DNA from: Paenibacillus agilis
GTDB lineage: Bacteria > Bacillota > Bacilli > Paenibacillales > Paenibacillaceae
NCBI RefSeq assembly: GCF_007786455.1
Contig: NZ_VNJK01000001.1
Location: forward strand, 1,090,782-1,114,781
Length of the DNA: 24,000 nucleotides
Reading direction: 5' to 3'
Shown here: in pieces, positions 5,266 through 13,269 of the stretch
Layout of the letters: each line of letters starts with the position of its first letter
Numbering within the stretch: the first letter of the stretch is position 1
Translations under genes and position numbers: made by a program
The notes under the pieces: model-generated
Database searches by the model: none
Told to the model about the DNA's origin: nothing
What the model saw: the letters and a program-made list of their open reading frames with translations, nothing else

Positions 5266-5292
5266 AATGTAGGAATAAGAACAGAAGCTTTA

Positions 5293-5394
5293 ATGGGAAC
5301 GCTTCGAATATGGGGTATTGTAATCGGTATAGATCTATTGATTACGCTTAGTTATTTTATATGGCCAAGAGAAAAGAAGAAGTTTGTGAAGTAA
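5293..5394 (+). CDS. Possible 33-aa membrane peptide (MGTLRIWGIVIGIDLLITLSYFIWPREKKKFVK)
   Basis: Read by hand and not in the ORF track. It has one hydrophobic helix and a basic tail, sits directly after the bactofilin-like gene, and has only a weak SD sequence. Confidence 0.2.
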   Translation: MGTLRIWGIVIGIDLLITLSYFIWPREKKKFVK

Positions 5395-5499
5395 GAAGAT
5401 TATCTTTTAAAAATGGATAAGCCTTTCAATAAAGTTAGAGATGGAAGGCTCTTAGCTGGCTGAGTACATAACATAAAAAAACAGCTCCTTTTCGAACAG

Positions 5500-5538
5500 T
5501 TGCCACCTGGAATGAAGATTATCCATTCTAGGTGGCAA
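5500..5538. terminator. Hairpin between convergent genes
   Basis: ttgccacctggaatg (5500-5514) pairs with cattctaggtggcaa (5524-5538), 15 bp with one mismatch. There is no adjacent clean U-tract on either strand. Confidence 0.4.
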
Positions 5539-5586
5539 TGTTTACATGAAAACAATAAAAATTAATAAATTCCTACACAAAAAACA

Positions 5587-6857: not shown

Positions 6858-6982
6858 ACAAGTACAAAAAAGCGCAAGTACACCACAGGTTCTTAACTTG
6901 ATGGCCATGAGGTTCAAGCAGTAAAGAGCTAAGAGTGAAATTGCTGAGTCACTGTCATTTTAATGAATATAAAAATCCGCAC

Positions 6983-7011
6983 TTGACTGCTAGGAATAAT
7001 GTGGATAATAT
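6983..7011 (+). promoter_or_regulatory. Sigma-A-type promoter upstream of the sulfotransferase leader
   Basis: TTGACT (6983-6988), 17-nt spacer, TAATAT (7006-7011). Confidence 0.5.
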
Positions 7012-7056
7012 AATCCCAATACATTTACATAGGCAACAGCCGATTGGATCACCAAA

Positions 7057-7110
7057 GGCTCATGTATCTTTTAAGCTTTCAAGCTGATAGAGAGACATGA
7101 GTCTTTTTTA
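7057..7110 (+). terminator. Intrinsic-terminator-like hairpin inside the leader (attenuator, or the end of a small RNA)
   Basis: ggctcatgtatct (7057-7069) pairs with agagacatgagtc (7091-7103), with one mismatch and one G-T pair. There is an inner AGCT..AGCT helix. TTTTTT (7104-7109) follows, only 30 nt before ATG 7140. Confidence 0.55.
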
Positions 7111-7139
7111 TTTCCTAGAGAGTGAGAGGAGTATGAAAT

Positions 7140-8582
7140 ATGGGACATCCTACGATTTATCCAACGGGAACAACGGTTTACAAGCCAGAGCAGGCATGGA
7201 GTGGATATACACTGTATCAAGCGGCAGATACGGGAGCGCTCCTTATTGATATGAATGGTCGAGAGGTTCATCTTTGGAAAGGGCTGCGTGGATTTCCAAA
7301 CAAGCTGTTGCCTGGCGGTTATGTACTTGGAAGTACGGCACAACGTGATACAAGATACGGGTTTCAGGATGAAAAAAACTTAGTTCAAGTCGACTGGCAT
7401 GGCAATATTGTCTGGAAGTTCGACCGCTATGAATGGATTGAAGATCCCGACAATCCAGCGCAGTGGATGGCGCGTCAGCATCATGATTATCAGCGTGAAG
7501 GCAATCCTGTCGGTTATTATGTGCCAGGGCAGGAGCCGAAGGTAGATGCTGGTCGTACGCTTCTGCTTGTCCATAAAAATGTAACTCGTCCGAACATTTC
7601 GGATAAGCTGCTGCTGGATGATGTCCTTATTGAAGTGGACTGGGAGGGAAATATCCTCTGGGAGTGGGCGTGCAGTGATCATTTCGATGAACTGGGCTTT
7701 GATGAGCAGGCGAAGGAAGTACTGTATCGCGACCCGAACACGAGATTCTTTGGTGCGAATGCAGGGGATTGGATGCATATTAATTCCGTTTCGGTATTAG
7801 GTCCGAACAAGTTCTACGATGCTGGCGATGAGCGTTTCCATCCAGACAATATTATTTGGGATGCCCGCGAGTCTAACATTATTGCCATTATAGACAAGCA
7901 ATCTGGGAAGATTGTATGGAAGCTGGGGCCGAATTACGACACAGAGGAAACGAAGCATCTCGGCTGGATTATTGGTCAGCATCACGCGCATCTTATTCCG
8001 AAAGGATTACCTGGTGAAGGGAATTTGCTCGTATTTGATAACGGGGGCTGGGCAGGCTACGGTGTGCCAAATCCAGAGTCTGCGGACGGGCTGAGGGTAG
8101 CTCGGCGGGATCATTCTCGTATTTTAGAAATCAATCCAGTAACGTTGGAGATTGAGTGGCAGTATACGCCGACTGAAGCGGGATTTCAGGCTCCGCTTGA
8201 TTCTTATCGTTTCTATAGTCCATATATTAGCTCGGCGCAGCGTCTTCCTAATGGCAATACGTTAATTACAGAAGGGGCTGACGGTAGAATTTTCGAGGTG
8301 ACTCGGGAGCATGAACTGGTGTGGGAGTATATTTCTCCTTATAAAAATCAACGGAATGCCAATATGGTCTATCGGGCATATCGTGTGCCTTATGAGTGGG
8401 TGCCTCAGCTAGAACAGCCAGAAGAGGTTGCTATTTTGCCGATTGATGTGGCTGATTTCCGCTTGCCAGGTGCGGCTCCGCGAGGAGCGATTACAGCCGT
8501 TGAAGTAGAAGGTACAACAGCAGAATATGCTGAAGGAGCGTTATGCGTGGCAAGAATCGATGAAACGGAGCGTAAGGAATAA
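7140..8582 (+). CDS. Aryl-sulfate sulfotransferase (ASST) family beta-propeller protein, cytoplasmic type
   Basis: The N-terminus MGHPTIYPTGTTVYKPEQAWSGYTLY and internal GDWMHINSV, QHHAHLIP and LVFDNGG recall the ASST family. There is no signal peptide. The SD sequence GAGGAG lies 8 nt upstream. Confidence 0.6.
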   Translation: MGHPTIYPTGTTVYKPEQAWSGYTLYQAADTGALLIDMNGREVHLWKGLRGFPNKLLPGGYVLGSTAQRDTRYGFQDEKNLVQVDWHGNIVWKFDRYEWIEDPDNPAQWMARQHHDYQREGNPVGYYVPGQEPKVDAGRTLLLVHKNVTRPNISDKLLLDDVLIEVDWEGNILWEWACSDHFDELGFDEQAKEVLYRDPNTRFFGANAGDWMHINSVSVLGPNKFYDAGDERFHPDNIIWDARESNIIAIIDKQSGKIVWKLGPNYDTEETKHLGWIIGQHHAHLIPKGLPGEGNLLVFDNGGWAGYGVPNPESADGLRVARRDHSRILEINPVTLEIEWQYTPTEAGFQAPLDSYRFYSPYISSAQRLPNGNTLITEGADGRIFEVTREHELVWEYISPYKNQRNANMVYRAYRVPYEWVPQLEQPEEVAILPIDVADFRLPGAAPRGAITAVEVEGTTAEYAEGALCVARIDETERKE

Positions 8583-8605
8583 TAGTTGAATTTGAAATGA
8601 ATGTA

Positions 8606-8715
8606 ACGGCTACGTTGTCCTGCTTGCAGGTGCGGCGTAGTCGTTTGCTTTTGGACCAAAACGAGTGATGTAACTGCCGGGGTTGGATTTAAATTTCAAG
8701 CAGTAGAACGTTTCA
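8606..8715 (-). pseudogene. Decayed fragment A of a second RT gene: its last ~40 codons plus stop
   Basis: Aligns by eye to 9733-9843 (the RT 3' end). The first 28 nt are identical and roughly 80 percent overall. The minus strand reads ...TFYCLKFKSNPGSYITRFGPKANDYAAPASRTT*, against RT ...TTFCAQKITSKSGSYTARFGPKTNDFTAPASRTT*. Confidence 0.6.
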
Positions 8716-8891
8716 TGATAATGAAAAGTAGACATAAAATATCTTAGATTAACGAAAAGAGTTTCCTCCGAGATAAAGTCGGTATAAGATGATAGGTACG
8801 CTTGCTAGTGAGATTTTAAGAAGGTAAATTTACTTTAATTATTAATCATATAAGTACAATAAACGTTATTTTTAGAGAGGAGGTTTTGTTG

Positions 8892-9434
8892 ATGAATCTT
8901 AGTTATATTCTATATACAGTTTTGTTGATCTTAGTATGGGTGCTATTGCTGACAGGTTTCATAATAAAAAGAAATACTAAATTCATCCGAGGGTACCTGT
9001 GGGTATCTGTGCCCTGTATCTCATTGCTTTTATTGTATTTTTGGAATACTAGCCTAAATAATTATGTACGAAGTTATTTATTCGCAGCTCACACTTATAC
9101 TTGTGAGTATTACGACAGCTTAAAACCACACTCTCTCCCTCTTCCTAAAAGAAGTGTATTAAAAGGCAAATCAGATGCTTGTTCCCCGTTTTATTTGACG
9201 TTTTCGAAAGATAAAGATGTTATTTCATTTTATGAGACAGTATTAATCGAATGGAAAAATAAAAAATTAATTTCAGGATTTCATTATGCTGAAAGGGACC
9301 ATCAATATGGTGGTAAAGAGAAGGGGTATGTTGCCTCAATCCCTGATGGAGCTACCCTTGATATATTTATTCATGTTTTGCAGGATAGTTATGAGGGACA
9401 GATGTTATCGATCCGATTTAAACGTAGTGGATAA
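8892..9434 (+). CDS. Hypothetical membrane protein, 2 N-terminal TM helices plus a ~110-aa soluble domain
   Basis: ATG 8892 lies 8 nt after GAGAGGAGG (8875-8883). The TM helices are ILYTVLLILVWVLLLTGFII and YLWVSVPCISLLLLYFW. I recognise no family. Coding is very AT-rich. Confidence 0.6.
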   Translation: MNLSYILYTVLLILVWVLLLTGFIIKRNTKFIRGYLWVSVPCISLLLLYFWNTSLNNYVRSYLFAAHTYTCEYYDSLKPHSLPLPKRSVLKGKSDACSPFYLTFSKDKDVISFYETVLIEWKNKKLISGFHYAERDHQYGGKEKGYVASIPDGATLDIFIHVLQDSYEGQMLSIRFKRSG

Positions 9435-9557
9435 TGTAAAAGTCTTCATGAATGAGATCTCGAAAGACAAATGGGCGATCATGGACCGCCTGTGCATACC
9501 TATGGAATTTCTATATACTCAAGCTCAGCGTGGCTATTATTAATAATTGAACCTATA

Positions 9558-9638
9558 TAGAAACTCAAACGCAGAATGTACATAGTTTCCTTACGGCTAT
9601 CATCTTTGCAATATACGATTTTTATTTATGGTTAATGT
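9558..9638 (-). pseudogene. Decayed fragment X of a second RT gene (motif 6-7 region)
   Basis: Aligns by eye to 9845-9925 at roughly 80 percent with a 1-nt indel. The minus strand reads P*IKIVYCKDDSRK..., then after the frameshift NYVHSAFEFLY. The RT reads PEKTKIVYCKDDSRKGNYAHVSFEFLG. Confidence 0.55.
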
Positions 9639-9683
9639 TCTCCCTATTTTTTAATATCCATAACAGGTGCTCAATTATATTGT

Positions 9684-9738
9684 AAAAGCCGTTTTCCTGT
9701 AAAAGGGGAAATAGATCATTGAAAGCGAAATCACGGCT
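9684..9738 (-). terminator. Weak terminator-like hairpin overlapping the RT stop codon
   Basis: On the minus strand, AGCCGTGATTTC (9738-9727) pairs with GGAAAACGGCT (9697-9687), forming 6-bp and 4-bp helices with a bulge. Only UUU follows, and the loop is long. Confidence 0.25.
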
Positions 9739-10696
9739 ACGTTGTCCTGCTTGCAGGTGCAGTGAAGTCGTTTGTTTTTGGACCAAAACGAGCGGTATAA
9801 CTGCCAGATTTGGATGTTATCTTCTGTGCACAGAAAGTTGTGCCTAGAAACTCAAAAGAAACATGAGCATAGTTGCCTTTACGGCTATCGTCTTTGCAGT
9901 ACACGATTTTCGTTTTTTCTGGATGAGGGGTAAGCTTGTATTGCGCTAATCTTTGCTGCAACTGGGCAAGCAGCTTTTTCGCGCTTGTTTCACTTTTACA
10001 ATGGCAAATGATATCATCTGTGTAGCGCTCGAAAGGAATATCGGGGTGTTTCTGCTGCATCCATTTATCAAAAATATGATGCAAATACACATTGCCTAGC
10101 AAAATATTGAGTTTGCTGCCTTGTGCGAGTCCTTTTTTTGATTTGACTACTGTTCCATCTTTCATTTGAACAGGTGCTATCATCATGCGATGGGTGTACA
10201 GCAATGCCCATTTGCTCCGAATATGTGTTTTCAACATCTCCATAAGCAGCCGATGGTTAATGTTTTCTCCAAACTTTTTAATATCTATGACAAGTGCCCA
10301 ATCATATCGTAAACAGCGTTCGCCTGCTATGCGTACGGCATCATCACGCGCTGGTCTTTTTTGTTTATAGCCATATGAATTGGGATGAAATAGACGCTCG
10401 AATCCAGGGGCAAGTTCATTTTTTAACAGTGTTTGTACAATAAAATCTTTCACCGTTGGAATACCCATTGGCCTCCATCCGCCGCTTTTCTTGGGGATTA
10501 CGATTCTTCGAACGGGAGAAGGAACATATTTGCCGGAGTTAAGCTCTACCCACAATTCATGTAACCGTTTGATTCGATCTTGCTTAAAATCTTCAATGGT
10601 CTGACCATCTATGCCGACCACTTTGGTTTTTTCTGATTGTCGGAATGCTTCCAACAAAATGTCCTTTGAGATTTGAAAGCGCCGCGTCTTTTCCAT
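9737..10696 (-). CDS. Reverse transcriptase, group-II-intron-like (RVT_1), free-standing, no thumb/maturase/endonuclease domain
   Basis: Motifs: VIPKKSGGWRPMGIPTVKDFIVQ (1-2), VIDIKKFGENINH (3), KGLAQGSKLNILLGNVYLH (4), RYTDDI (5), EKTKIV (6), FEFLGTTF (7). The ORF ends 25 aa after motif 7. The SD-like sequence GAGGGGGA lies just upstream of ATG 10696. Confidence 0.9.
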   Translation of the reverse strand: MEKTRRFQISKDILLEAFRQSEKTKVVGIDGQTIEDFKQDRIKRLHELWVELNSGKYVPSPVRRIVIPKKSGGWRPMGIPTVKDFIVQTLLKNELAPGFERLFHPNSYGYKQKRPARDDAVRIAGERCLRYDWALVIDIKKFGENINHRLLMEMLKTHIRSKWALLYTHRMMIAPVQMKDGTVVKSKKGLAQGSKLNILLGNVYLHHIFDKWMQQKHPDIPFERYTDDIICHCKSETSAKKLLAQLQQRLAQYKLTPHPEKTKIVYCKDDSRKGNYAHVSFEFLGTTFCAQKITSKSGSYTARFGPKTNDFTAPASRTT

Positions 10697-10739
10697 CTTA
10701 TCCCCCTCTGATCATCCATCTGAGCGATAGGAATGTACC

Positions 10740-11180
10740 AGCATATGAGAAGGTTCTCGTTTCGGTTTGTACAGTAGTCCATGTGGGGAATTGTATCTCA
10801 GGCTGCGCTGCACTATGGATTACCTATGCCAATCAAATTCCGCTAACGAGCGCTATGGACGTTATTTTCGTAAAATGATTCATTTTAGATTGCTAACGGT
10901 TGTAGTCGAGCTTATTTTAGCAATGATACCAAATGATATCGATCACACCGACAATTAAGCTCGCTGACACCCGTTACATTTCAAAATTCATCCATAAGCA
11001 CGGAATAGCCTCCGTGGCAACCGTTAGCGCAATTTTTGCTGCGTTGCTCTTTGCAGTTAGGGCAATTGACTCTCAGTCCTAGATACAATCACATAGCTAT
11101 AAGCTGCTACTACTTTTTTGCATAAGCTTTTTGCCTACGTGTAGGAAGTACCTATAAGTAAAAGGGCGAGCTCCTTTGGA
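10740..11180 (-). ncRNA. Candidate structured non-coding RNA upstream of the RT (boundaries and strand provisional)
   Basis: Nested perfect helices: 10892-10902/11018-11028 (11 bp), which encloses 10907-10914/10956-10963 (8 bp) and 10999-11004/11011-11016 (6 bp). Further helices: 10872-10878/10880-10886 and 11144-11148/11151-11155. No ORF here has an RBS. I found no convincing promoter. Confidence 0.3.
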
Positions 11181-11445
11181 GAAGAGAGCTGTGAACTATT
11201 ATTAAACATGAGCGAACTTCAAAATAATGGGTAATCAACAGGTCCAAAGTATTCCTATTTTGATAAAATGTTAAAATTAACAGAAAGATATCTCCTAAAT
11301 CATGGATATCTATAACAAATAATTGATGTATTATATTGTCTCGTTTCGTTCCTCATGGTAGTCTACATCGGAGATATCCATAACATATAGCGCTACAGCA
11401 GCATTTTGTATGGCGGCCTAGATGAGCGAGAAGGAGAAGATTACG

Positions 11446-13269
11446 ATGAAGAAGAAAGTCGCTATTATTTTCACCTGCATCTTACTGATCACAACAATTG
11501 TTACGTATGCATGGAATGCAAGTAGTGCCAGCCCTCGTGTTATCCCTATCCCTCCAGCGGGTAAGACGTCGGAAACGGAGAAGAGTGTAAGTGTAGAGGC
11601 CATTGTTGGCAGTAATATGCCAATTGAAGAGAAGGCAAAAAAGATTGTCGTTCTTATGAATGATAAGGAAAAAATAGGCCAACTTGTCATGTATACGCCT
11701 ACGAATCAAGCCGATCCCTTTTCAGAGAAGATGATAAATGAATATAACGTGGGCAGTGCCTTGGTAACGGCAACGATGAATAATACGGTTCACACGGCTC
11801 AGTTCAACAACCAATTACAACGGTTAGCGTCTGAAACCCGATTAGGCCTCCCGTTATTCATTTCTGGTGATATGGAATATGGAACGGCTCAGAGAGTTCC
11901 TGCTAACGGTACCATTTTGCCTAGACAGATGGCGATTGGAGCGACACGTAATATCGGATACGCGGAGCAAGCAGCACGGATAACGGCCAAGGAAGCCAAA
12001 GCATTGGGCTTTCAATGGAGCTACTCACCGGTCGTAGATGTAAACTCCAATATAGAGAATCCGGTTATTGGTGTACGTTCATTTGGAGAGCAAACTCAAA
12101 TGGTCTGCGACATGGCTGTTGCACAATTGAAAGCGTATCAAAGTGAAGGTGTCTTATCCAGCGCTAAGCATTTTCCAGGACACGGGGACACTAGCTTTGA
12201 CACACATACAACACTTTCTAAAGTATCCTACAGCGAAGATGTATTGAGACAAGTGCATCTCCCTCCATTCAAAGCAGTCATTGATCAAGGCATTGAATCG
12301 ATTATGACATCCCACATTATTATTGAAGCGATTGACTCAACACTTCCAGCAACGTTATCGAAAAAAGTTCTAACCGGCCTATTGCGTGAGGATATGGGGT
12401 TTAAAGGAATGATTATTACCGATGCGATGGTCATGGACGCCATATCAAAAAACTGGGGAGCGGGCGAAGCCGCCGTTATGGCTGTTAATGCAGGTGCAGA
12501 TATAGTAATGGCCAATGGCTCAGCAGCAGATCAATTCGAGACGTTGGATACTTTATACGGAGCATTGCAGGCCGGGAAAATAGAAAAGAGTCGTGTTGAT
12601 GATGCAGTGACACGAATTATTACTTATAAATTAAAAATGAAAACGTTTGATAACCGTTATGTTGATGTTGATCGGGCTGTAAAAATAGTCGGAAACGGAG
12701 AGCATTGGGATCGTTCCTATCAGATGGCTTTGGACTCAATAACGCTGCTCAAAAATGAAAACGTGCTTCCGTTCGATCCTAAGTCGAATGAAAAAACACT
12801 TGTCGTAAGTATGGCCTATGCGGAACGGATTGCAAAGATGGTTAGGGCAGTAAGCAAGGGCGAAGTATTGTCTTATCAAGCGGCACCAGCTTGGGGAGAA
12901 CCATTAGATGCAACGGAAGAGGCTATTCAAGGAGCTCTTGAAAAAGCAAAACAAGCCGATCGTATTATTGTATTTACACAGTCAGATCGCAAAATTCCAA
13001 AAGGCCAAGTAGATCTTGTTAACCAGCTAGTCGCTACAGGTAAGCCTGTTGTGGCGGTTGCTCTCGGCAATCCTAGCGATATCGTAAGTTATCCAAATGT
13101 GAAGGCTTATCTAACAGCTTATGCCGCTGATACATGGTATTGGATTACTCCTGTCCCGATCGCTTGGAATGCATCAGTTGAAGTTATATTCGGCACAAAT
13201 CCAAAGGGGAAACTGCCTGTTACATTAAGTAAAGAGTACCCAAGAGATTTTGGACTTAGCTATCGCTAG
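11446..13269 (+). CDS. nagZ: Secreted glycoside hydrolase family 3 beta-N-acetylhexosaminidase (NagZ/YbbD-like)
   Basis: The KHFPGHGDTSFDTHT signature and GFKGMIITDAM are present. The N-terminal signal sequence is MKKKVAIIFTCILLITTIVTYA. I prefer ATG 11446, in frame with the listed 11422, with AAGGAG (11431-11436) 9 nt upstream. Confidence 0.85.
   Translation: MKKKVAIIFTCILLITTIVTYAWNASSASPRVIPIPPAGKTSETEKSVSVEAIVGSNMPIEEKAKKIVVLMNDKEKIGQLVMYTPTNQADPFSEKMINEYNVGSALVTATMNNTVHTAQFNNQLQRLASETRLGLPLFISGDMEYGTAQRVPANGTILPRQMAIGATRNIGYAEQAARITAKEAKALGFQWSYSPVVDVNSNIENPVIGVRSFGEQTQMVCDMAVAQLKAYQSEGVLSSAKHFPGHGDTSFDTHTTLSKVSYSEDVLRQVHLPPFKAVIDQGIESIMTSHIIIEAIDSTLPATLSKKVLTGLLREDMGFKGMIITDAMVMDAISKNWGAGEAAVMAVNAGADIVMANGSAADQFETLDTLYGALQAGKIEKSRVDDAVTRIITYKLKMKTFDNRYVDVDRAVKIVGNGEHWDRSYQMALDSITLLKNENVLPFDPKSNEKTLVVSMAYAERIAKMVRAVSKGEVLSYQAAPAWGEPLDATEEAIQGALEKAKQADRIIVFTQSDRKIPKGQVDLVNQLVATGKPVVAVALGNPSDIVSYPNVKAYLTAYAADTWYWITPVPIAWNASVEVIFGTNPKGKLPVTLSKEYPRDFGLSYR

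Follow-up and report, generated by a model that had tools for sequence, protein, structure and literature searches.

Free-standing reverse transcriptases (RTs) that resemble those of group II introns have been described as the G2L classes (Simon & Zimmerly 2008, PMC2602772), including G2L4 (Park et al., bioRxiv 10.1101/2022.03.14.484287). The RT studied here is encoded in a 24,000-nt stretch of the Paenibacillus agilis genome, referred to as the window. It shares with the G2L enzymes the character of a stand-alone, chromosomally inherited group II RT derivative with no intron RNA and an altered YxDD motif, here YTDD. G2L3-5 retain an X/maturase motif, whereas this RT ends right after motif 7; G2L1/2 are likewise without a maturase domain, but the present RT is not CRISPR-associated.

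Beside the intact RT gene lies a second, broken copy of its 3′ end. Like TPRT retrocopies (non-LTR elements, group II intron retrohoming), this copy keeps the RT 3′ end and is without the 5′ end, but here there is no intron RNA, endonuclease, target-site duplication or tail, the copy stands in tandem, the unit reaches into the neighbouring gene, and the event is not recurrent in the RT family. A tandem segmental duplication with a pseudogenised partial copy, and with later conversion or deletion between its direct repeats, agrees with the locus in the head-to-tail arrangement, the one novel junction, the flanking non-RT DNA within the unit, the single promoterless and decaying copy, the mosaic identity, and the presence or absence of the copy among close relatives. 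Nothing essential differs from such a duplication, the only notable point being an orphan gene that now lies within the decayed copy. The locus also resembles a rho-independent terminator shared by convergent genes, in that a 39-nt GC-rich hairpin followed by a T-run is kept in four genomes; what differs is that the predicted terminator falls within the final ~13 codons of the opposing RT, so that nucleotide-level conservation of the RT coding sequence and stop would have nothing to do with the RT itself. We consider it quite probable that the broken copy is a decaying remnant of an ordinary tandem duplication at the DNA level, and that a 28-mer identical in both copies is part of the presumed terminator of the convergent arylsulfotransferase (ASST) gene.

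The intact RT gene (9737-10696, minus strand) encodes a group-II-intron-like protein of 319 aa with an RVT_1 domain only (Pfam RVT_1, 2.4e-30) and without the X/maturase (thumb) domain. It matches the NCBIfam profile group_II_RT_mat with 273 bits over profile positions 2-282 of 353, which is below the cutoff, and gives no match to PF08388 (X/maturase); the whole RT family ends after RT motif 7 (alignment A1), and no DNA-binding or endonuclease domain was found in the RT. D227 and D228 of the YTDD motif are invariant in the 17 sequences of this family alignment, dN/dS against orthologues is 0.09-0.17, and the RT is apparently functional. Rfam returned nothing at gathering thresholds in the window and nothing at E ≤ 5 in 8300-11500, and hence no group II intron or retron RNA. 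The locus thus lacks the ribozyme domains (D1-D6, DV, by Rfam) and the X/maturase domain of a mobile group II intron; it also lacks the adjacent msr/msd RNA of a retron (by Rfam), the retron_St85_RT profile scoring 48 bits against a cutoff of 235. No RT-associated ncRNA emerged from the upstream regions of family members, which are not generally structured and have only ~100 nt of promoter-like sequence in common; the structured block of 250 nt that precedes the RT is specific to the lineage and missing from Paenibacillus sp. SC116.

Convergent with the RT is the ASST gene (7140-8582, plus strand; Pfam PF05935 and PF14269), which is syntenic in the loci L001, L002 and L006 and whose last two codons lie inside the duplicated unit. 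Between the two genes, the second RT copy consists of collinear pieces. Piece 3 (fragment A; 8606-8715, minus strand) corresponds to RT 9733-9843 and occupies the orthologous position, contiguous with ASST (alignment A2); the repeat finder and BLAST align 8592-8697 with 9719-9824 at 81% identity, with an 88% core at 8606-8688 and 9733-9815. Piece 2 (fragment X; 9558-9627, minus strand) corresponds to RT 9845-9915/9925, the same tools pairing 9558-9622/9627 with RT 9845-9910/9915 at 83-86%; a 1-nt deletion and stop codons leave its translation frameshifted and interrupted. Piece 1 (9628-9699, minus strand) corresponds to RT-internal 10253-10326 (RT nt ~371-444) at 78% over 74 nt, and was recovered by the repeat finder (repeat family D2/D11), by BLAST and as a degenerate translation. 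Pieces 1 and 2 flank a 327-nt internal deletion (RT 9926-10252), while an AT-rich insert of ~840 bp (8716-9557; GC 0.32-0.36), common to P. assamensis, splits the pseudo-copy between pieces 2 and 3. No target-site duplication was detected at the insert edges, and an extension of fragment A past 8715 scored no better than shuffles. Over all 290 aligned columns the two copies are 76% identical, and in the 77 nt just upstream of the 28-mer block they agree at 55/77. The first-pass annotation had described a copy of one ~190-nt RT 3′ end split by ~840 bp. Its matches of fragments A and X to the RT, the in-frame stop and 1-nt indel in X, the uneven identity and the 28/28 identity of 8606-8633 with 9733-9760 were all borne out, as was the split; the copy is larger, however, comprising the third piece, which was absent from that annotation, as well as the spacer and the ASST tail, and it is truncated at ~RT nt 367 rather than ~nt 770.

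The homology does not end with the RT but continues over its stop and across the intergenic spacer as far as the final two ASST codons. The 3′ flank of the intact RT, read from 9731 to 9703, matches the ASST-proximal spacer and last ASST codons of P. assamensis at 24/27, a score reached by 0/1000 shuffles; this RT-proximal copy of the spacer and last two ASST codons (9703-9736, minus strand) forms the 3′ end of duplicated unit b. The three RT-derived pieces, the spacer and the ASST tail therefore make up one head-to-tail unit of ~627 bp with a single novel junction at 9702/9703, where ASST-tail-like sequence (..CCCCTT) is joined to RT-internal sequence (TTACAGG.., RT ~10326-10329) within 9700-9705. 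With the spacer and last ASST codons included, the breakpoints are not gene or transcript boundaries. It is the ASST-proximal copy that is without the RT 5′ end, and no further copies exist in the window or at seven other RT family loci.

A genome scan for closer relatives yielded three Paenibacillus loci, and a metagenome scan nothing close. The comparison with related strains that the first-pass annotation had proposed shows a single RT abutting ASST in P. arenosi and P. sp. SC116, where the RT 3′ end adjoins ASST in just the way that fragment A does in P. agilis; window positions 6981-8697 are colinear with L001 8590-6873 and 6974-8712 with L002 8596-6858, both single-copy loci. A second copy is lacking both from the two nearest single-copy Paenibacillus loci and from five more distantly related loci of the family. 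In P. assamensis (L006), the colinear alignment also shows the insert, together with fragment A and the end of X. The dS values make P. arenosi and P. assamensis sisters, with P. agilis and SC116 outside, so that the duplicate is old and was presumably lost in P. arenosi; we infer that this secondary loss occurred by recombination between the repeats. The P. assamensis RT agrees with its own pseudo-copy at 73/77, against 55/77 for the P. agilis equivalent, and the two spacer types have a mosaic distribution; we infer that the copies have exchanged sequence by gene conversion. What the anatomy and the relatives show is thus a tandem duplication that then decayed, which the annotation had named as the mundane alternative, and the outcome that it had named as speaking against its own proposal, ordinary duplication with gene conversion, is partly what P. 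assamensis displays.

On this reading, a ~627-bp segment would have been duplicated head-to-tail at the DNA level in an ancestor of P. agilis and P. assamensis; the segment would have begun with the final two codons of ASST, included the spacer of 20-28 nt and ended at ~nt 367 of the convergent RT. The product would have been an intact RT and an intact ASST with a promoterless, 5′-truncated RT fragment between them, presumably dead on arrival. This fragment would then have decayed through the 327-nt deletion, a frameshift and stops, A+T drift, and the 840-bp insert with its orphan gene. In the copy next to ASST, selection would preserve the terminator. In the copy next to the RT, these bases code for the RT tail and may also serve as a terminator for the orphan gene; conversion over short tracts between the two direct repeats has probably raised the identity further.

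The window contains exactly two occurrences of the 28-mer, ACGGCTACGTTGTCCTGCTTGCAGGTGC, one starting at 8606 and the other at 9733, where none would be expected by chance. The well-conserved block is really 49 nt long, not 28, with 45/49 positions identical between the P. agilis copies, and it coincides with a predicted intrinsic terminator of ASST (8606-8653, plus strand) made up of a GC-rich hairpin of 39 nt (8606-8644) and a T-run (8645-8653). Within this hairpin, the 28-mer at 8606-8633 forms the 5′ arm and the apical CCTG-CTTG-CAGG stem-loop. In its 65-nt context (8596-8660) the sequence folds with an MFE of -26.5 kcal/mol (z -4.5; 0/200 shuffles as good), and a terminator scan matched the stem at 8632-8644 with the tail TTGCTTTTGG. 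The hairpin begins 24 nt past the ASST stop and overlaps the RT stop and the last ~13 RT codons. The 28-mer would have remained undecayed because, on the strand opposite to the RT, it forms the 5′ arm and apex of the presumed ASST terminator.

Comparison among species supports this assignment. The hairpin is kept at the ASST-proximal position in four genomes (z -5.6 in SC116, -3.2 in P. arenosi and -2.35 in P. assamensis), with almost no compensatory changes because the stem is nearly invariant, and the 28-mer at this position agrees at 24-27/28 between species. Across the dead fragment, the terminator part is conserved at 42-47/49 (86-96%) versus 37-41/56 (66-73%) for the remainder. In all four genomes the block is preserved in whichever copy abuts ASST. 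The block attached to the P. assamensis RT itself is down to 21/28 and its stem is broken, yet the RT frame is still open over its full length; the RT therefore does not need it. Family members without a convergent ASST (Brevibacillus, Cohnella, metagenomic) have no stop-overlapping hairpin. Most likely, then, the selected function of the block is that of an intrinsic terminator of the convergent ASST, its activity being predicted from sequence, and not that of an RT priming or recognition element. The first-pass annotation was right in substance about nucleotide-level selection here, but not about the recognition or priming function that it attached to it.

The duplicated terminator copy inside the 3′ end of the intact RT (9733-9782, plus strand; T-run TTTGTTTTTGG) lies downstream of the orphan gene. 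It is 45/49 identical to 8606-8654, and its hairpin is weaker (MFE -17.4 kcal/mol, z -0.8). This RT-proximal copy is well conserved in P. agilis though there is no ASST there to terminate, and its conservation has to be explained by constraint on the coding sequence, by a function for the orphan gene, or by gene conversion. Both P. agilis copies also have in common a loop base, G, that is unseen in the other genomes, which points to conversion rather than pure retention.

The private loop base bears on a different account of the block, in which the block has no function and a recent conversion over a short tract between the repeats, or chance, is all that lies behind the 28/28 identity. The evident gene conversion in P. 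assamensis would fit such an account, and a run of at least 28 matches is no more than moderately significant under uniform mismatches (P ~0.02-0.03). Against it stand an ASST-proximal block that holds between species while the adjoining dead sequence does not, and the coincidence of this block with a strong hairpin and T-run directly after the ASST stop; we think this account unlikely.

The 840-bp insert contains an orphan gene (8886-9434, plus strand) encoding 182 aa with a predicted N-terminal hydrophobic segment. Only two homologues were found in 5.8 billion proteins, those of P. agilis (100%) and P. assamensis (87-88%); with a dN/dS of 0.21 the gene appears to be under purifying selection. 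An ORF of the same length, 182 aa, in P. arenosi is unrelated. A mobile origin of the insert or the orphan gene was considered and rejected, there being no Pfam, PADLOC, NCBIfam, PHROG, phage or plasmid match to either. Between P. agilis and P. assamensis the orphan dS is 0.27 versus 0.47-0.67 for flanking genes, a difference measured over just 180 codons of a gene rich in A+T. Because the orphan dS lies below that of the flanks, this segment may have been exchanged laterally and not simply inherited by vertical descent. More broadly, the second copy and the orphan insert might have arrived by homologous recombination with related Paenibacillus DNA carrying a rearranged RT-ASST region. Such an arrival would agree with the low orphan dS, with a duplicate that is found in P. 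agilis and P. assamensis and missing from P. arenosi, the sister of the latter, and with the resemblance of the P. agilis RT-proximal spacer to the P. assamensis ASST-proximal spacer. We consider it decidedly unlikely: the loss in P. arenosi through direct-repeat recombination is a simple alternative, and an original tandem duplication would still be required in some lineage, so that the route would change but not the nature of the event.

The first-pass annotation had raised abortive retro-copying. On such an account the RT copied its own mRNA from the 3′ end, a 5′-truncated cDNA integrated just downstream, and the 28-mer hairpin served as the recognition or priming element. The copy is indeed 5′-truncated, in the same orientation and directly downstream of an apparently functional RT, its stop-spanning block is unusually conserved, and an insertion exactly at the transcript end is formally indistinguishable from a tandem product. 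Several results nevertheless make this very unlikely. Part of the unit is DNA from outside the RT gene, since it takes in the spacer and the ASST codons that lie past the hairpin and T-run; the orthologous position is held by the truncated copy and not the full one; neither an A-tail or other non-templated tail nor a target-site duplication was found; the block has decayed beside an intact RT in P. assamensis, and the family elsewhere is without a stop-overlapping hairpin; the seven other family loci carry no extra copies; and the RT has no thumb/X, DNA-binding or endonuclease domain and no intron RNA. That the stop-spanning hairpin is a cis-element recognised by the thumb-less RT on its own mRNA, and that the RT produced the partial copy at its own locus by copying or template switching, with no error of replication or recombination involved, seems to us scarcely probable.

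A DGR-like pair of template and variable repeats, with the identical 3′ block as an IMH-like element, can practically be dismissed, the likeness (two ~100-nt repeats near an RT, a perfectly matching end and then a hairpin) being superficial: it is refuted by the 70 mismatches, which are distributed over all bases of either copy (A 14, G 19, C 18 and T 19, as counted in that of the RT) with no adenine bias, and furthermore the would-be variable copy is a frameshifted fragment with stops rather than the end of a target gene, and the RT is of the group II intron type, not the DGR type.

The locus is therefore a cautionary example, in that nucleotide conservation at the end of an RT gene and a 5′-truncated copy next to it resemble retroelement activity, and both signs are explained here by a DNA tandem duplication together with the predicted terminator of a convergent neighbour that overlaps the RT stop. 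It also illustrates how a duplicate is remodelled over time: part of it is deleted, it captures an orphan gene, it undergoes gene conversion, and in a sister species it is lost. [quoted passage not shown]

The 3' end of the reverse transcriptase gene RT (9737-10696, minus strand; 319 aa, with RVT_1 as its sole domain) is repeated beside the convergent arylsulfotransferase gene ASST (7140-8582, plus strand). The first-pass annotation described this repeat, and it is borne out: 8592-8697 aligns with 9719-9824 at 81% identity (repeat finder and BLAST), and the core of the repeat (8606-8688 vs 9733-9815) reaches 88%. An insert of ~840 bp (8716-9557) separates fragment A of this second copy (8606-8715) from fragment X (9558-9627), which is 83-86% identical to RT 9845-9915 and, as also claimed, is broken by a 1-nt deletion and stop codons. 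Two parts were absent from that annotation: a third piece, 9628-9699, which matches RT-internal 10253-10326 at 78%, and homology past the RT stop. The copies are 76% identical across all 290 aligned columns. The 28-mer spanning the RT stop (8606-8633 and 9733-9760) occurs exactly twice within the window, with zero occurrences expected by chance, and a run of at least 28 matches has P ~0.02-0.03 under uniform mismatch, so the uneven conservation described earlier is genuine, though of modest degree.

P. arenosi and P. sp. SC116 have one RT, convergent to ASST, with the reading frames 20-25 nt apart. Because these loci run colinear with the window over 6981-8697 (or 8712), passing from ASST directly into the RT 3' end, fragment A is the copy in the orthologous position. 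The 3' flank of the intact RT (9731->9703) matches the ASST-proximal spacer and last ASST codons of P. assamensis at 24 of 27 positions, a score reached by 0 of 1000 shuffles, and RT-internal homology restarts directly after that flank, at 9699 (~10326). Together, these matches point to a head-to-tail unit of ~627 bp that takes in the last two ASST codons and reaches ~RT nt 367, with a single novel junction at 9702/9703. Tandem duplication followed by decay, initially regarded as the mundane alternative, is thus borne out, since the unit takes in neighbouring-gene DNA and has one novel junction. The duplication leaves RT and ASST both intact, plus an RT fragment with no promoter. This fragment subsequently lost 327 nt (RT 9926-10252), acquired a frameshift and stops, drifted in composition towards A+T and received the 840-bp insert, at which no target-site duplication is detectable.

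Inside the decayed copy lies an orphan gene (8886-9434, plus strand; 182 aa, hydrophobic N-terminus; dN/dS 0.21) known from P. agilis and P. assamensis alone. Its protein matches a P. agilis protein at 100% identity, which assigns the window to P. agilis. A predicted near-consensus sigma-70-type promoter (TTTACA-18-TATAAT, 11/12; 9674-9703, minus strand) falls exactly on the duplication junction, directed into the pseudo-copy, in antisense orientation relative to the orphan gene. That strand also has a terminator-like hairpin (9490-9474), which is conserved in P. assamensis.

Shared with P. assamensis are fragment A, the ~840-bp insert that contains the orphan gene, and the final 25 nt of X; window 9583-9727 has no counterpart there. 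By dS (0.21-0.28; RT, ASST and a GH3 gene), P. arenosi and P. assamensis are sisters, with P. agilis and SC116 outside; the duplicate is therefore old. The simplest account of its absence in P. arenosi is that the direct repeats recombined and it was lost; lateral exchange may also lie behind its distribution. Elsewhere, just ~156 nt (5278-5433) are left of a region whose P. arenosi counterpart (L001 9858-10514) contains a 182-aa ORF distinct from the orphan gene, which suggests a ~500-bp deletion in P. agilis.

Read in the ASST sense (plus strand), a long hairpin spans 8606-8644; it starts 24 nt past the ASST stop, and TTTGCTTTT follows it. Folded in a 65-nt context (8596-8660), it has an MFE of -26.5 kcal/mol (z -4.5), equalled by 0 of 200 shuffles, and a terminator scan also flags it. 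The 28-mer constitutes its 5' arm and tip. The ASST-proximal hairpin is also present in SC116 (z -5.6), P. arenosi (z -3.2) and P. assamensis (z -2.35). Against these other ASST-proximal copies, the dead P. agilis fragment matches at 42-47 of 49 positions in the predicted terminator part and at 37-41 of 56 in the remainder. The block copy on the open, full-length RT frame of P. assamensis is down to 21/28, its stem broken, and no hairpin overlaps the stop in RT family members that lack a convergent ASST.

Just upstream of the block, the RT 3' end matches the pseudo-copy at 73/77 positions in P. assamensis vs 55/77 in P. agilis. Together with the mosaic distribution of two spacer types and a private loop base common to both P. 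agilis copies, this argues that gene conversion acts between the repeats, and it may have contributed to the 28/28 identity.

Abortive retro-copying, an origin suggested at first pass, did not hold up: the unit takes in neighbouring-gene DNA and shows neither tail nor target-site duplication, an intact RT can do without the block beside it, and the copy does not recur at seven other family loci, namely the two nearest single-copy loci in Paenibacillus and five that are more distant. A group II intron or retron is rejected, with no detectable RNA and no maturase domain, as is a DGR, the mismatches having no adenine bias.

Against the group II intron RT/maturase model the RT reaches 273 bits, short of the 300-bit cutoff, with profile positions 2-282 of 353 covered. 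Its nearest relatives are 304-319-aa RTs in Paenibacillus, Brevibacillus and Cohnella, followed by true group II maturases (415 aa, ~49% identity). Members of this Paenibacillaceae family are free-standing and conserved, have a YTDD active-site motif and all stop right after RT motif 7, without an X/maturase or thumb domain. They match none of the G2L classes described in PMC2602772 and PMC4244168. Neither an intron RNA nor a retron RNA could be detected for the RT, and family members have no intron RNA. With dN/dS of 0.09-0.17 vs orthologues, the RT is under purifying selection; for the family the value is ~0.1. Family loci are syntenic within genera, and no conserved neighbouring genes were seen; in Brevibacillus fluminis (L004 7238-11768) the RT adjoins a McrBC-like DUF2357/PDDEXK_7 and AAA_5 gene pair, not found beside other members.

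Family-wide, ~100 nt 5' of the RT start are kept (10700-10790, minus strand), with a motif, ACAA..(~17-20 nt)..CATAT, that we take to be a candidate resembling mother-cell sporulation sigma (SigE/SigK) promoters. A ~250-nt non-coding block (10785-11040) shows 87-89% conservation among P. agilis, P. arenosi and P. assamensis, against a neutral dS of ~0.5, and is absent from SC116. On either strand it folds as a long nested hairpin (z ~ -3). Neither an intact conserved ORF nor any Rfam, plasmid or phage match is present, and the block may represent a small RNA gene or else a MITE-like insertion. Upstream of it in P. arenosi (L001 ~5330-5585), GCGTAGC/AGCAAGGC-like repeats form a degenerate array that has no equivalent in P. 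agilis.

The feature is an ordinary tandem duplication remnant plus a probable terminator shared by convergent genes, and the ~10-residue C-terminal tail specific to this Paenibacillus clade is the RT frame reading through the predicted ASST terminator.
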